Shown here: in pieces, positions 1 through 4,631 of the stretch
Numbering within the stretch: the first letter of the stretch is position 1
Layout of the letters: every line of letters begins with the position of its first letter
DNA from: a virus
Taxonomy: Duplodnaviria; Heunggongvirae; Uroviricota; Caudoviricetes
Length of the DNA stretch: 4,631 nucleotides
Reading direction: 5' to 3' (one strand)
IMG/VR virus record: IMGVR_UViG_648276648_000005
Coordinates: 1-4,631 of that record
Program-made: the position numbers and the translations under genes
The notes under the pieces: model-generated
Told to the model about the DNA's origin: nothing
Seen by the model: the letters and a program-made list of their open reading frames with translations, nothing else
The model's database searches: none

Positions 1-781
1 AAATGCTCTTAGTACAGTACCGGACGATGTCCGGACTCGGCACCCCATGAAATACCTGAATATATGATGTGTTTGCAGATGCTCCCCCCGCGCCACCGCC
101 TGTACCACCCGGTGCAGTTATCAGGGAACCGAAATAAGTTGTGCCACCTTCACTACCTGAATTTCTTCCGGCTCCCCCCCCTTTACCTGCAGCACCGATA
201 ATAACGTTGACTTCGAAATCATTATCAACCTCGAAAAATGCTTCAATAAATGCACCGCTCAATCCAGCTCCGGCTGTTGCCTGCTGATTTGCTGTTGTTT
301 CAGGAACCCCACCGCCGCCGCCACCGCCACCAGAGGCAATGACCCTTATCTTTTTTGTCCCTGGTGTTGGGATATATTTTCCAGAGCTTTTAAAAATATT
401 CGTGTTTAACAAACGACCAGAGAATCTGGCTTCTCCCAAACCAAGGTTTTCGAGAGCCGTTTTCACCGTGCCATCCGATTTGATATCACCAAACGGATTC
501 TTGCGGCTCAGGTATTCAACAGCAAACCCCGATCCCAGCAATTCAACAAAACCGGGCAGATCACCATTATCAAGCACATCCCGTTGCGTTTTGTCACTTA
601 CAAACTGGGCCAGAGCTGCAGCAATAAAGCTGGCCTGCCGAATAACCTTATTGACTTGCGCACTGGATGCTTTCCCTGCTGTAAATCCGGATAAAAGCGC
701 AGGCAACGCTTCCCATTCCTCCTGCGACATAACATTGGCATTTTTACCCGTTGCGAATGCTTTAAAGTCATTTTTTGCCAT
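1..781 (-). CDS. Tail fibre protein, N-terminal ~260 codons (gene continues beyond the window start); glycine-rich central region
   Basis: Minus-strand ATG at 781..779 overlaps the stop of the upstream gene. I scanned the frame by hand and found no stop down to position 2. The ORF track omits it, presumably because it has no in-window stop. Translation begins [33 protein letters not shown] and later contains a Gly8 run and further GGxGG motifs typical of phage fibre proteins. Its position right after the baseplate genes fits a fibre gene. Confidence 0.75.
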
Positions 782-1461
782 CAGAGTAATACTCCCCATG
801 CCCCTACATCAAAACCACTGATGAATTCGTTATCCATATCAAAACCAAAAAATTTTGAACCTTCCGATGGGGTTTCCACCGAAGGTGTTTCAATGCCACC
901 CGCCCACACCCCGGCGGCTTTTACTGTGAGATATCCCTGTTTAATTGCAGCAATTAACTCACGCGATACATCTGAAATATCAGTATCAGGAAAGACCCAG
1001 ACCGATATCGTCATGTCCTGGTTATCGACAATCTGCATTCGCAGCCCGGATCCTGCTGTTGCCGCGTCAAGAATTGCCGGAAGCGAATCATTCCGTCCGT
1101 CCCAGTTATTAATCGCAATCTTCGCTTTAAGAATGACACGATAAGTTTCATCGCTGAGATACATGTATCCAGAATCAGGATCATATGGCCCCTGCCATAC
1201 CCCCTGATCATATCCAAGCCCGTCGGTATCCCAGCTGAAATAGACACCTGAGATAGGCTGGCTGACAACACGGCTACGTCCGATCCACAATCCCAGAATG
1301 TCAAGTTGCACACCAACCGCAGAGTCAATATCAAATGCAGTAATCAGCCCTCTGGTGGCAGCCGCAACATCAATAAGCGGCCGGGTCATCAGATCAACAT
1401 GCGCAAGAAATTTAGGTTTGGTGGCGTGGTAGTTCGTGATTAGTTCGGTGTATTTGCTCAT
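781..1461 (-). CDS. Baseplate/tail protein, Mu gp48-like (e14 YmfQ-like, DUF2313-type)
   Basis: 226-aa ORF whose start overlaps the stop of the J-like gene (ATGA at 1458..1461) and whose stop overlaps the fibre start at 781. Size and position immediately downstream of baseplate J match the gp48/gpI-type wedge protein. The family assignment is from gene order and recollection, not a search. Confidence 0.7.
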
Positions 1462-2657
1462 GACTCCACCGTTATAACGATATTTTCCGGGGTACAGGAC
1501 GCAGATTCGTTGTATCTGATATCAATGTTTGATGACGACAAAGCCCCCGGGGATTTCCCAATCGTCAGTTCCTGAATATCGTAATAGCGTGCATTCCCGC
1601 CACTCACCACGCCAAGATTGGCCGGTGAGTAAATGCGACTTAAAAGGACTGAATCACCAATCGTCAGACTATTGATATAGTCGGAAATAGCCTGCTGGAT
1701 CTGCTGCCCTATCTGTGAGGTATAACCCGTAAAAACTTTTAATTTAATCCGGGCATAAACAGGTACATCACTGGAACGCGAGAATTTGATTACATGGGGA
1801 TTGCCGTATTTATCCGGAACCGTAACGGATGTTGTACCGTGAGTGGCTGTCCCCTGACCTTTATTCCCTCTGATAGCCTGAGCAATATCCGTCACATCAC
1901 CGCCATCCACAATTACAGCAACAGAGTGTGGTGGTAACCCGTTACCGTCCTCCGAACCAGTATCGTTTTCATAGAGTTTGTGGCGGGTTACACCGGTAAC
2001 ATTAGAAACAGCACCATCCAGTGCTTCAAATGGGGTTATTGATGGCAATGCAACACTTTGCGACTGGCGGATACGTAACTCCGCGTCAGTTTCTGCCGGA
2101 GTGCCCACAGTAGCTGCAGCAGGATTGGTTACCGAAACCCAGCCACGGGTTGGCGTATTAATTTCAGTGATAGTTCCAGCCAGCGCCGCCACTGCACCAC
2201 TGACGGAACATGTTGCGGTCACCATCACTGTACCATCCACGCCGACCACCACTGAAGCAGGCAAACGCCATATCACATTATTACTGTCTTTCACGCTGCC
2301 ATTAATGATGGTTGTTCCGGCAGTTCCTGTAAGAAGCAAATCAACCGTAGAATTCGTCGCGCCTTTACGTGAAATACCATTTATTTTCACGTTACTGGTC
2401 AGTGCGGCCCCATAGCCGGTTGCTGGTGAAAAACAGTTGTAGACAGTTATCGCCATATTATTGGCATCATGAATCGCCAGCGCCATCAGAGCCACCATCT
2501 GACCGTCTTTACTGTCCGGTTCGAGGTAGGCATCACTACCATAAATCTGCTGAAAATAGCTAATCAGGGTGCTGAGTATCGTCTGATAATCAGGCGCACT
2601 GATCCCCTCCGCGGTTACCTTTGCAGATAAACCGAGAGAATCAAGGTTCAGAGCCAT
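1458..2657 (-). CDS. Baseplate J-like protein (Mu gp47 / P2 gpJ family)
   Basis: 399-aa ORF, the largest in the cluster, with a Thr/Gly/Val-rich beta-type composition. It lies between the small gp46-like and gp48-like genes, and its start at 2657..2655 overlaps the upstream stop (TAATG). Confidence 0.8.
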   Translation of the reverse strand: MALNLDSLGLSAKVTAEGISAPDYQTILSTLISYFQQIYGSDAYLEPDSKDGQMVALMALAIHDANNMAITVYNCFSPATGYGAALTSNVKINGISRKGATNSTVDLLLTGTAGTTIINGSVKDSNNVIWRLPASVVVGVDGTVMVTATCSVSGAVAALAGTITEINTPTRGWVSVTNPAAATVGTPAETDAELRIRQSQSVALPSITPFEALDGAVSNVTGVTRHKLYENDTGSEDGNGLPPHSVAVIVDGGDVTDIAQAIRGNKGQGTATHGTTSVTVPDKYGNPHVIKFSRSSDVPVYARIKLKVFTGYTSQIGQQIQQAISDYINSLTIGDSVLLSRIYSPANLGVVSGGNARYYDIQELTIGKSPGALSSSNIDIRYNESASCTPENIVITVES

Positions 2658-3010
2658 TACGCCTCCGATGTAACAGTCGTTATTCCATAGAGAGTGTCGA
2701 TTTCAGCGGAAAACATGACACGTCGGGTCGTGGTATCCACCGTCGTATTGAAAGAGAGGATTGATTTAACGCCCTGCGTTTCGAGGATGCGCTTACGGAT
2801 CGCCAGGTTGTAAGTTTCTGGTTTTTGCCTGCCCAGCACGGACTGGATCCACGGTGTTCCCTCTGTGGTATCAAGAAACCATTGCCCATACCACAATTCG
2901 AATCGCGTTTTCACAGCCTGCGCTACGGCCTCAGGCGAGTTAATCAGCCAGGTGTCATCACCGCTGCCAAAGGTGTAATCGCCATCGGCGTCTTCACGTC
3001 TGTATCGCAT
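2657..3010 (-). CDS. Small baseplate protein, Mu gp46-like (W-type wedge subunit)
   Basis: 117-aa ORF sitting between the spike and J-like genes, with overlapping stop/start codons at both ends. The call is by size and synteny. Confidence 0.65.
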   Translation of the reverse strand: MRYRREDADGDYTFGSGDDTWLINSPEAVAQAVKTRFELWYGQWFLDTTEGTPWIQSVLGRQKPETYNLAIRKRILETQGVKSILSFNTTVDTTTRRVMFSAEIDTLYGITTVTSEA

Positions 3011-3762
3011 CAGTTTACCCCGTCGGTACTGCTTCCACCACGCTGAACACCACCATGAGTGTGTGTATCATCGATTGGCTTGCCATTAGCCTTCACGCTC
3101 CCCAAAAACTCAACAGCACCAGTGATTTTTGAAGCCACACCAGAAACCACAGACCCCACCATGCCCCCCATCCAGGTTAACAGGCCATGAATGGTTACTT
3201 TCTCAGAAAAATCAGCCAGAGGGGCAACCACATCAAGACCACCTGGAGCGACAATTTTAATTTTCCTGGTATCAGGATTAAGCTCAAAATAGGTGCTGCC
3301 GTCATCACTACGCAACTGTGTGGCACTGGTATTAATACCGCTAATCTTCCTTGCCTGCGACTGGGGACCGACAATACAAAACGCATCCGATAAATCATGC
3401 ATTCTGTCATCGACCGACTCCTGTATCCCGCCACTCTGCCACCAGAAATCAATACAACGATCGGCAAAAATCACCAAACATTCATCACCGGCTTTAACTG
3501 GGAACGTTAGCGTACATCCTCCGCCGCGCGGGAATACCACTGGCACATCCACCAGCAATGGGTAATTTTTGGTAATGCGGTTGCCGTCATTATCCTTTTC
3601 AACCGAACGGATAGCAGGCTGCACAACTGCCGTCACCGCATCAGGATCGAATGACTGAATAATGCCAGGCAAGGCGACACGGATCTGGTTCTTTGTTGTT
3701 TCCCGTTCAGATTTGAATGTTTCGGCAAGGTCGCCGCTGCGGGTCTGGTCAGATACTGCCAT
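3010..3762 (-). CDS. Baseplate central spike/assembly protein (Mu gp45 / P2 gpV-like) with a His-rich C-terminal tip
   Basis: 250-aa ORF with a GGAG ribosome-binding site 8 nt upstream of the ATG at 3762..3760. The N-terminal half has an OB-fold-like pattern (LVDVPVVFPRGGG...DECLVIFADRCIDFWW). The C-terminus carries DDTHTHGGVQRGG, resembling the metal-binding apex of spike proteins. Confidence 0.7.
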   Translation of the reverse strand: MAVSDQTRSGDLAETFKSERETTKNQIRVALPGIIQSFDPDAVTAVVQPAIRSVEKDNDGNRITKNYPLLVDVPVVFPRGGGCTLTFPVKAGDECLVIFADRCIDFWWQSGGIQESVDDRMHDLSDAFCIVGPQSQARKISGINTSATQLRSDDGSTYFELNPDTRKIKIVAPGGLDVVAPLADFSEKVTIHGLLTWMGGMVGSVVSGVASKITGAVEFLGSVKANGKPIDDTHTHGGVQRGGSSTDGVN

Positions 3763-3781
3763 TTAGTAGGCTCCAGAAAGC

Positions 3782-3804
3782 AAAAAACCCGCCGAAGCGG
3801 GTTT
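3782..3804 (-). terminator. Rho-independent terminator downstream of the 131-aa ORF
   Basis: On the minus strand the sequence is AAACCCGC-TTCG-GCGGGTTT followed by TTT: a perfect 8-bp stem with a UUCG tetraloop and a U-tract, 18 nt after the ORF stop at 3822. On the plus strand the stem is followed by only three T, so it is effectively unidirectional. Confidence 0.75.
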
Positions 3805-3821
3805 GATAACGTTAATTTTAT

Positions 3822-4217
3822 TCATGAAACTCTAGCAGACTTTAGCTGTTCCCAGCGCTCAAAATAGAGTTCAGCAGCCTCGATTGCATCCTGTCCCATC
3901 TCTTTCGAAACAGTCACATTCGTCAGATCATAGTCAGCTTCATTTCTAGCATCCCGCCACTGGCGAAGTACGAAAGCTAGGGATTTCAGTGTATTTGTCG
4001 GGTATGGCTCTGATTTGCACTCTGAGGGCGTTGACATATAACCCACAGTATTTTTGTGATGCTCATGGGTAAAATGCGGTATGGCAGTAAGTGAGCTAAT
4101 AGACTCATGTAACATACTGTAATACGCCCTTGAGATAGCGCTTCGAAATCCACTCTCAATATTTTCAGACAGACATAATCGAGCGGTATCGAGAATCTGA
4201 TTGCTAGTTACCGACAT
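3822..4217 (-). CDS. Hypothetical protein, possibly HEPN-like (candidate orphan toxin/defence cargo gene)
   Basis: 131-aa ORF with a GGTGA ribosome-binding site 6 nt upstream of the ATG at 4217..4215 and its own terminator. Hand-counted GC is about 44% against about 52% for the neighbouring baseplate genes. The protein looks all-helical, with an N-terminal pattern (ARLCLSENIESGF-RSAISRAYYSMLHESISSL) and a C-terminal RDARNEADYD resembling HEPN motifs. The functional call is inference only. Confidence 0.6.
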   Translation of the reverse strand: MSVTSNQILDTARLCLSENIESGFRSAISRAYYSMLHESISSLTAIPHFTHEHHKNTVGYMSTPSECKSEPYPTNTLKSLAFVLRQWRDARNEADYDLTNVTVSKEMGQDAIEAAELYFERWEQLKSARVS

Positions 4218-4231
4218 GGTAGCTCACCCCC

Positions 4232-4260
4232 TGACCTGCTCCCCGTTGATTAGTACACCC
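4232..4260 (+). repeat. Putative left terminal inverted repeat (IRL) of the IS element; inner boundary approximate
   Basis: Begins with TGACCTGC. The right end is outside the window, so the IR length and the target-site duplication cannot be confirmed. Confidence 0.45.
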
Positions 4261-4273
4261 CGATGTTAGTAAT
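4246..4273 (+). promoter_or_regulatory. Candidate orfA promoter (-35 TTGATT, 16-nt spacer, -10 AGTAAT) inside the IS left end
   Basis: TTGATT at 4246..4251 and AGTAAT at 4268..4273, upstream of a GAGGA ribosome-binding site at 4291..4295 and the orfA ATG at 4303. This is hexamer matching by eye only. Confidence 0.3.
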
Positions 4274-4302
4274 GTCTTCATAAGCCACATGAGGACATCC
4301 CC

Positions 4303-4566
4303 ATGAAGAAGCGTTTTTCCGACGAACAGATCATCAGTATTCTCCGCGAAGCCGAAGCTGGGGTACCCGCCCGTGAACTCTGCCGCAAGCATGCCATTTC
4401 CGATGCCACGTTTTACACCTGGCGTAAGAAGTATGGCGGTATGGAGGTGCCTGAAGTTAAGCGCCTGAAGTCGCTTGAGGAAGAGAACGCCAGACTCAAG
4501 AAGCTGCTTGCCGAAGCCATGCTGGATAAAGAGGCGCTTCAGGTGGCTCTTGGGCGAAAGTACTGA
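4303..4566 (+). CDS. IS3-family transposase OrfA (HTH DNA-binding domain plus leucine-zipper region)
   Basis: 87-aa ORF MKKRFSDEQIISILREAEAGVPARELCRKHAISDATFYTWRKKYGG...LEEENARLKKLLAEAMLDKEALQVAL. The helix-turn-helix and heptad-leucine pattern is characteristic of IS3/IS407 OrfA. GAGGA ribosome-binding site 7 nt upstream. Confidence 0.9.
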   Translation: MKKRFSDEQIISILREAEAGVPARELCRKHAISDATFYTWRKKYGGMEVPEVKRLKSLEEENARLKKLLAEAMLDKEALQVALGRKY

Positions 4567-4631
4567 CGACAGACCAGAAGCGGGAAGCCGTGATGTTGAT
4601 GTGTGATGCGACCGGTCTGTCGCAACGTCGT
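4530..4631 (+). CDS. IS3-family transposase OrfB, N-terminal part (-1 frame relative to orfA; expressed as OrfAB by frameshifting; partial)
   Basis: The -1 frame is open from 4530 to the window end and reads ...KVLTTDQKREAVMLMCDATGLSQRR, a typical OrfB N-terminus. It has no start codon of its own, which implies fusion to OrfA by frameshift. Confidence 0.7.
4557..4622 (+). promoter_or_regulatory. Programmed -1 ribosomal frameshift signal: A_AAG slippery motif plus downstream stem-loop
   Basis: A_AAG at 4557..4560 is the last Lys codon of orfA, followed by a 6-nt spacer containing the orfA stop. Then 4567..4575 CGACAGACC pairs perfectly with 4614..4622 GGTCTGTCG (9 bp) across a 38-nt loop. Confidence 0.55.

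Follow-up and report, generated by a model that had tools for sequence, protein, structure and literature searches.

The open reading frame (ORF) at 3822..4217 on the minus strand of IMG/VR virus record IMGVR_UViG_648276648_000005 (Caudoviricetes; positions 1 to 4,631, the 4,631-nucleotide stretch that is referred to as the window) codes for a real HEPN-fold protein of 131 aa, which can with high confidence be regarded as the HEPN half of a two-gene phage accessory cassette. In intact loci, the HEPN gene and a gene for a TPR-like partner protein are obligately paired by co-inheritance, and the cassette is mobile low-GC accessory cargo that, in enterobacterial prophages, occupies a variable slot flanked by the hub and spike genes. 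In the window, an insertion sequence (IS) splits the partner gene, and the HEPN gene, intact in sequence, is probably a stranded and poorly expressed remnant. The mechanism proposed for the cassette, with the HEPN protein as an RNase-type effector controlled by its partner and toxin-antitoxin (TA) or abortive-infection (Abi) behaviour as the consequence, is put forward more tentatively, with somewhat less than an even chance, so that the best explanation overall, a blend of identity and architecture on the one hand and mechanism on the other, is held with moderate confidence.

Fold, family and conserved residues of the HEPN protein

The resemblance to HEPN domains suspected in the initial annotation of the window is borne out by comparison with the Protein Data Bank (PDB), by profile searches, by the Pfam matches of relatives and by the fold. 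A phmmer search against the PDB matched two entries named 'HEPN domain-containing protein' (9xbd and 9xbc; E = 0.002-0.007), in an alignment that spans SRAYYxM, a histidine and RNxxDYD, and a profile of 22 homologues reached 9xbd at 2.6e-6 and AF0298 (2hsb, 'UPF0332') at 2e-3. Equally, the protein displays the four-helix up-and-down bundle of about 110-140 residues with HEPN topology. The window protein itself finds no Pfam match even at E <= 10 and none in NCBIfam or PADLOC, while the Pfam HEPN family (PF05168) matches 7 of the 22 close homologues (best E = 3.8e-5) and 29 of 56 remote relatives obtained by searching 1.84 billion representative proteins (best E = 9.4e-9); membership in PF05168 would accordingly be transitive, through these relatives and not by a direct match. 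The exact protein is labelled 'UPF0332 family' by JGI, and several homologues are labelled 'HEPN domain-containing' by NCBI and UniRef. Profile and structure searches, which had been recommended as a check, thus converge on HEPN, and the protein is placed in the AF0298-like (UPF0332) subgroup of HEPN-T. The expectation that no named functional family could be assigned has held as well, with Pfam, NCBIfam and PADLOC empty and with PHROGs placing the protein in phrog_5176 (E = 9e-40), a family of unknown function.

The length of the ORF, which begins with ATG and comprises 131 codons, is by itself not decisive, as antisense ORFs of 145 and 160 aa are also present in the window. The ORF is considered a real gene because of its homology: besides the PHROG family, homologues fall into 1,473 representative clusters (E <= 1e-3), and at least 1,000 contigs in GenBank and JGI carry the exact protein.

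The segment RDARNEADYD (residues 88-97) had been pointed out as standing in the place of the Rx4-6H motif, which in HEPN domains sits at the end of helix 3 (PMC3710099). This holds on the structural model, where R91 to Y96 (RNEADY) form the end of helix 3 (helix 74-95). The motif reads R91-N-E-A-D-Y96-D97, with the arginine kept and the histidine replaced, and departs in this way from canonical Rx4-6H; a canonical Rx5H is present, in the form RNEADYH, in a divergent sister branch comprising P0024, P0026-28 and the copy of the Klebsiella phage. Among the 22 homologues, R88, R91, N92, A94, D95 and Y96 are invariant and so are H53 and H54, and among the 56 relatives, down to 22% identity, R25, Y32, H37, R91, D95 and Y96 are invariant with E21, R30, Y33 and H54 conserved in at least 90%. 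On the model, R25 to H37 belong to helix 2, and H53/H54, which align with the histidine of 9xbd and 2hsb, open a short helix (53-62) inserted between helices 2 and 3. In AF0298-like HEPN-T proteins, the motif histidine is absent or replaced, often by aspartate, and a second conserved histidine in the insert between helices 2 and 3 has been considered to form, together with the basic residue of the motif, a possible alternative active site (PMC3710099). Both features, the replaced motif histidine and, with H53/H54, the second histidine in the insert, are found in the 131-aa protein, and as judged from the alignments its conserved residue set appears to match this proposed alternative active site.

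With the AF0298-like/UPF0332 proteins (PF05168; 2hsb; PMC3710099), the window protein thus shares a four-helix HEPN domain of about 125-135 aa that is not fused to another domain, and the alternative conserved histidine; on the other hand, identity to 2hsb is only about 20% and a direct Pfam match is lacking. The alternative-histidine arrangement is also shared, at the same position, by AbiV (PMC3710099), although no Pfam AbiV match occurs among the family matches of the 56 relatives (E <= 0.01).

The closest solved relatives, 9xbd and 9xbc, differ from each other at the motif tyrosine (RNRSDYD versus RNRSDFD), which suggests that the depositors mutated the counterpart of Y96 from Y to F; an associated paper was not found in the literature search.

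A two-gene cassette with a TPR-like partner

The same ORF, with a protein 100% identical, occurs in 27 of 5,426 complete Escherichia coli genomes, where a 257-aa gene stands directly upstream (15505..16278 in the E. coli locus L001) and extends 14 nt into the HEPN gene. An intact copy of the cassette is found, for example, in E. coli BH100N (NZ_CP025703, 2809782-2811091). The arrangement recurs in all intact loci examined, the partner lying directly upstream of the HEPN gene with a stop that overlaps or abuts the HEPN start. These loci include the Klebsiella phage ST405-OXA48phi1.3 (partner of 267 aa), Enterobacter kobei prophages (261 aa), Rahnella prophages (260 aa) and metagenomic and genomic relatives of the HEPN protein with 22-36% identity (254-265 aa, immediately upstream); one remote relative is left out of this count as uninformative, its upstream gene being cut by the end of a 1-kb contig. 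A partner-family profile matches all nine upstream proteins (E 1e-128 to 1e-5) and neither of two unrelated slot proteins taken as controls. Furthermore, members of the HEPN family and of the partner family recur on contigs of equal size. The self-contained orphan unit of the initial annotation is therefore the second of two genes in a conserved operon, the first of which has been cut by the IS. Equally, the ribosome-binding site (RBS) thought to be the ORF's own is present, with GGTGA at 4224-4228 (minus strand) inside GGGGGTGAG, 6 nt ahead of the HEPN ATG, yet it is not independent: GGTGA coincides with the final partner codons G250-V251-S252, and a RBS inside the coding sequence of the partner is a signature of translational coupling and not of an independent unit.

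The partner belongs to phrog_17809, again a PHROG family of unknown function. Its AlphaFold model (pLDDT 91.8) consists of eight TPR-like helices (7-139) and a compact alpha-alpha-beta-beta-alpha-beta domain (146-242), followed by a disordered tail. In this tail, R245, L247, G250, S252 and Y253 are invariant in the close enterobacterial partner subfamily, and G250, S252 and Y253 among 26 partners, while in the whole partner family N219 and A223, in a helix reading MN..LA, are the sole invariant residues; such sparse invariance fits a binding or regulatory protein, not an enzyme. An MNT nucleotidyltransferase, which had been named as the companion to look for, was considered and rejected, since the partner is TPR-like, shows no GS/DxD motif and has no nucleotidyltransferase match in Pfam, NCBIfam-type families or PADLOC.

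In the intact cassette, a gap of 95 nt upstream of the partner contains promoter-like hexamers (TTGACG-17-CACAAT), which are at chance level in number and well placed. The cassette would thus be ordered as promoter-like gap, partner gene of about 260 aa, overlapping HEPN gene of about 131 aa and terminator. This corresponds to the generic architecture of TA and Abi modules, with two small co-directional, co-inherited and mobile genes, the stop of the first overlapping or abutting the start of the second.

Among systems already described, the operon resembles the HepT/MntA type VII TA system (SO_3166/SO_3165, 5yep; 7ae2; 8xeh), with which it shares the upstream regulator, the downstream HEPN protein of about 130 aa and a tyrosine close to the motif. 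However, HepT carries a catalytic Rx4H and belongs to DUF86/PF01934, and the antitoxin MntA is a nucleotidyltransferase that AMPylates the toxin, whereas the present partner has a TPR fold with neither a conserved GS...DxD nor a Pfam or PADLOC match. Likewise, classical HEPN-T proteins stand alone or are paired with or fused to MNT, in contrast to the present clade, which always comes with a protein of TPR repeats and a C-terminal domain (CTD). A HEPN protein and a repeat protein in one operon are also found in LA2681 (fused to or in an operon with TPR) and AbiU2 (in an operon with Sel1 repeats; PMC3710099, Table 1), both of which differ in keeping Rx4-6H; LA2681 is set apart by its description.

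Some irregularities of database records concern the same two genes. In RefSeq, the HEPN gene is unannotated in 24 of the 27 complete E. coli genomes that carry the cassette, with the partner as the sole 'hypothetical protein' there; the annotation table of L001 holds no coding sequence (CDS) whatever for the 131-aa protein (15123-15518), and in the Klebsiella phage record MK416008 the HEPN homologue is broken into two short CDS. One 90%-identity cluster (136 members) also contains both the HEPN protein (131 aa) and its partner (257 aa), which is unexpected for unrelated sequences and may reflect a fused or read-through gene call linking the two.

Cargo slot and mobility of the cassette

The hub-spike region was compared in 352 complete E. 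coli genomes, of which 27 carry the cassette. In the other 325, the hub and spike flanks match and the interval holds other genes. These alternative cargoes include a 190-aa protein together with a YafO-family toxin, a DUF4282 membrane protein, a DUF2335 membrane protein and a pair of 243 and 142 aa (L013/L014, 1028-2187, minus strand) that is a distant homologue of the HEPN/partner system: the 142-aa HEPN-like protein has 30% identity, the motif RVNSDYK and a phrog_5176 match at 3.5e-45, and its 243-aa partner matches phrog_17809 at 6.8e-12. With this pair in the same place, the slot holds divergent 'alleles' of one system. The proposal that the ORF occupies a prophage cargo slot is therefore supported by the comparison among E. 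coli prophages.

An ordinary structural or assembly role of the ORF in the tail module could still have been suggested by the identical hub-spike position in E. coli, Enterobacter and Rahnella prophages. This explanation is effectively refuted by the 325 of 352 E. coli prophages that possess the same hub and spike and have unrelated genes in place of the cassette, by the unrelated positions of the pair in other phage types, by its distinct GC content and by the fold, which is that of a HEPN and not of a virion protein. Divergence points in the same direction: identity between E. coli and E. kobei prophages amounts to 85-96% for the plug, hub, gp25-like, Baseplate_J and wedge proteins, whereas the HEPN protein, at 53%, and the partner, at 42%, diverge far more. 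Across five backgrounds, the cassette has a GC content of 39-43% and its flanks one of 50-64%. In the window, the initial estimate of about 44% for the ORF was accurate (44.2%), and the about 52% given for its surroundings was too high, as the five flanking phage genes range from 47.7 to 51.7% and the whole of 1-3762 has 49.0%.

Outside the slot, the pair adjoins the tape-measure gene in a Klebsiella phage, lies between Mor and the endolysin in a Mu-like prophage, is part of an integrase/AlpA island where it adjoins a SocA_Panacea module, and stands beside homologues of P4 cII and Beta protein in a metagenomic contig (L021, 391-3870). The cII and beta genes of satellite P4 are part of a locus called a defence hotspot by Rousset et al. 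(PMC9122126).

The downstream boundary of the slot is marked by an intrinsic terminator. The hairpin AAACCCGC-TTCG-GCGGGTTT with its T-run (3804..3785, minus strand; -15 kcal/mol, z = -1.9) has an 8-bp GC-rich stem seventeen bases past the HEPN stop codon and is the sole terminator-like site within 3600-4631. When eight loci are aligned from the cargo stop to the spike start, the stem, the T-run and the RBS and ATG of the spike gene are conserved whichever cargo precedes them (HEPN, YafO, DUF4282 or DUF2335), in Enterobacter and Rahnella as well as in E. coli; sequence divergence is complete just upstream of the hairpin, and within it the loop alone varies (TTCG, CACCCG, CAAGTG, TCGA). Equally, 55 E. 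coli genomes without the cassette match these 44 nt only (window 3763-3806; L001 15064-15107). The UUCG-loop terminator described at the outset is thus real, while its reading as the ORF's own, and as a sign of an autonomous unit, had to be rejected, since the alignment assigns it to the backbone of the slot, common to unrelated cargoes. As the terminator is located directly ahead of the spike RBS, inside the tail-gene cluster, antitermination or a separate promoter are possibilities for late transcription to pass to the spike and baseplate genes.

The tail module itself is of the E217/PhiTE/Pam3 type, as judged by its Pfam families, rather than Mu-like as first described, and the hub and tape-measure genes, the place of which the ORF had been supposed to take, lie further upstream of the cassette in intact prophages, a view that is interrupted by the IS in the window.

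Two further variable features have been observed in these tail regions. Between the hub gene and the slot, a protein of about 110 aa with a signal-peptide-like N-terminus (phrog_3443, function unknown; L001 16374-16706 and the equivalents in L010-L013) is 55-65% identical between prophages with hubs of about 96% identity, and in L010 its place is taken by an unrelated protein of 154 aa that is similar at the N-terminus; this location may be a second variable position. In the Klebsiella phage with the pair, a gene for a TIR-domain protein on the opposite strand within the tail region (L002 16582-17460, minus strand) is likely another defence-type moron.

Insertion of the IS at this locus

The initial recognition of an IS element beside the ORF has been confirmed, the element being IS3-like and of the ISSen4 family (Table 1). 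Identity to intact cassettes ends at 4231, where the IS begins; its start is placed at about 4229-4232 with an ambiguity of about 6 nt over 4226-4232, since other copies of the IS have flanks that agree in part with this C-rich one (ACCCCC). As the window stops inside the element, only its left end is visible. The IS has inserted after codon 249 and before codon 250 of the partner, 14 nt ahead of the HEPN ATG, and has cut the invariant C-terminal tail off the rest of the partner and equally parted the HEPN gene from the upstream region of the cassette. The junction of IS and prophage is found in none of the 5,426 complete E. coli genomes, and an exact 40-nt junction scan of the GTDB representative genomes found none either, so that the insertion looks strain-specific. 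This HEPN copy is probably not functioning.

An ORF of 62 aa (4204-4392, minus strand) runs out of the left end of the IS in frame into the last eight codons of the partner and ends at the partner stop, which overlaps the HEPN start. If transcribed, this chimeric ORF could restore translational coupling to the HEPN gene; an exact look-up of its product found none on record.

Table 1. Annotated features of the 4,631-nt window
Feature	Position	Strand	Basis or remark
Start of glycine-rich fibre gene			left of the ORF
Wedge/DUF2612 gene	781-1461		left of the ORF
Baseplate_J gene	1458-2657		left of the ORF
gp25-like sheath-initiator gene	2657-3010		left of the ORF
Baseplate spike gene	3010..3762	minus	first backbone gene downstream of the cargo slot; PGAP name in L001, Pfam spike N-terminal domain in homologues
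Intrinsic terminator, UUCG loop	3775..3806	minus	stem 3804..3785 and T-run
HEPN-T (UPF0332/AF0298-like) gene, intact, 131 aa	3822..4217	minus	distal member of the two-gene cassette
Partner remnant, last 8 codons GVSYHVGN and stop	4204..4231	minus	comparison with L001; overlaps the HEPN start by 14 nt
Shine-Dalgarno-like GGGGGTGAG of the HEPN gene	4223..4231	minus	within partner codons; sequence
Left end of IS3-like (ISSen4-family) element	4232..4631	plus	99.8-100% identity to ISSen4-family copies from 4226-4229 onward
IS orfA	4303-4566		inside the IS3-like element

Proposed function and its alternatives

In the mechanism proposed, the HEPN protein would act as an RNase-type effector or toxin that uses R91 together with the alternative H53/H54. 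The TPR partner would bind the HEPN protein and hold it off or, alternatively, would turn it on once its TPR surface senses a cue of infection. The outcome would be TA or Abi behaviour that protects the lysogen, the module being expressed from the prophage. Prophage-encoded Abi effectors of the HEPN type have a precedent in HepS of Gifsy-1 (PMC13043305) and Tha of Staphylococcus aureus (PMC11087260), which are described as HEPN effectors encoded by prophage accessory genes, inactive by default and triggered by proteins of the incoming phage. A sequence relationship of the 131-aa protein to HepS or Tha was not found, and HepS, described as having no partner gene and a canonical Rx4-6H, differs from the present protein with its obligate TPR partner and non-canonical motif. 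With still more reserve, the pair of PHROGs 17809 and 5176 might be seen as a widespread phage-borne immune or Abi system that combines a TPR sensor with a non-canonical HEPN RNase, the site of which would be formed by the motif arginine and the alternative histidine with tyrosine/aspartate replacing the motif histidine, and the hub-spike slot as a new defence hotspot.

Three observations weigh against the effector mechanism. Neither the HEPN protein nor the partner has a match in PADLOC-DB 2.0.0 at E <= 10, the canonical catalytic histidine is absent from the 131-aa protein (RNEADYD), and the strain of origin is evidently viable with an intact HEPN gene and a disrupted partner. The last of these argues against a simple model in which the loss of the antitoxin kills the cell, unless the IS silences the HEPN gene. 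Either the IS has silenced the gene in this locus, which would fit with no promoter-like site upstream of it within the window, or the HEPN protein does no harm before it is activated, like HepS, which would favour a partner acting as sensor and activator over a classical antitoxin. The accessions of the partner were also not found in the available portion of the DefensePredictor supplements.

The missing motif histidine and the intact HEPN gene beside a disrupted partner equally speak for a different role, as some HEPN domains are non-catalytic binders (PMC3710099). The HEPN protein would then be a ligand- or nucleic-acid-binding adaptor without catalytic activity, as in sacsin or kanamycin nucleotidyltransferase, and the cassette would be regulatory for the prophage, for example by acting on host or phage RNA or on a nucleotide signal, and not a toxin. 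This is regarded as unlikely, since variation at R25, H37, H54, R91, D95 and Y96 is absent or rare down to 22% identity and these residues match the proposed alternative active site, since the sister branch keeps Rx5H and since YafO, a TA-like cargo, occupies the same slot.

Another role is suggested by the contexts, most of which, where they can be judged, are phages, prophages and satellite-like or integrative elements. The pair might serve the phage itself, in counter-defence, in the control of superinfection or lysogeny, or as a late RNase of host takeover, instead of protecting the host as a TA or Abi system. The placement between Mor and the lysis genes of the Mu-like prophage, within transcription programmed by the phage, is consistent with such a role, and so is a partner that evolves faster than the HEPN protein (42% versus 53% identity) as if it tracked a changing target. 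However, the promoter-like gap, the terminator, the low GC content and the exchange with TA and membrane-protein cargoes are typical of morons expressed in lysogeny, and with 325 of the 352 related E. coli prophages lacking the cassette, it is dispensable for the phage life cycle. A phage-serving function is consequently considered improbable, even more so than a non-catalytic adaptor, and the partner-controlled RNase-type effector is retained as the proposed mechanism.

Significance

The structure of the family has been available since 2006 (2hsb), its classification since 2013, and both PHROG families exist. Literature searches retrieved no paper on the pair and none for 'UPF0332' or WP_000718774, and no description of the obligate TPR-CTD and HEPN-T pairing, of its function or of the hub-spike cargo slot was found. 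The pair is a good candidate for defence screens, although a HEPN module in a prophage cargo slot no longer comes as a surprise. For the window analysed, the message is modest, as the gene is a stranded half-cassette.

Should the cassette prove to function in defence or as a toxin module, the partners of HEPN effectors known so far (MNT, RnlB/Dmd, ATPase or none) would be joined by a sensor or antitoxin of the TPR type. Equally, the cassette would open to experiment the alternative active site that was predicted in 2013 in AF0298-like HEPN proteins, for which structures have been solved and no demonstrated activity was found in the literature. Furthermore, the slot would then represent a cargo hotspot inside a tail-gene cluster, which could be searched for further systems.

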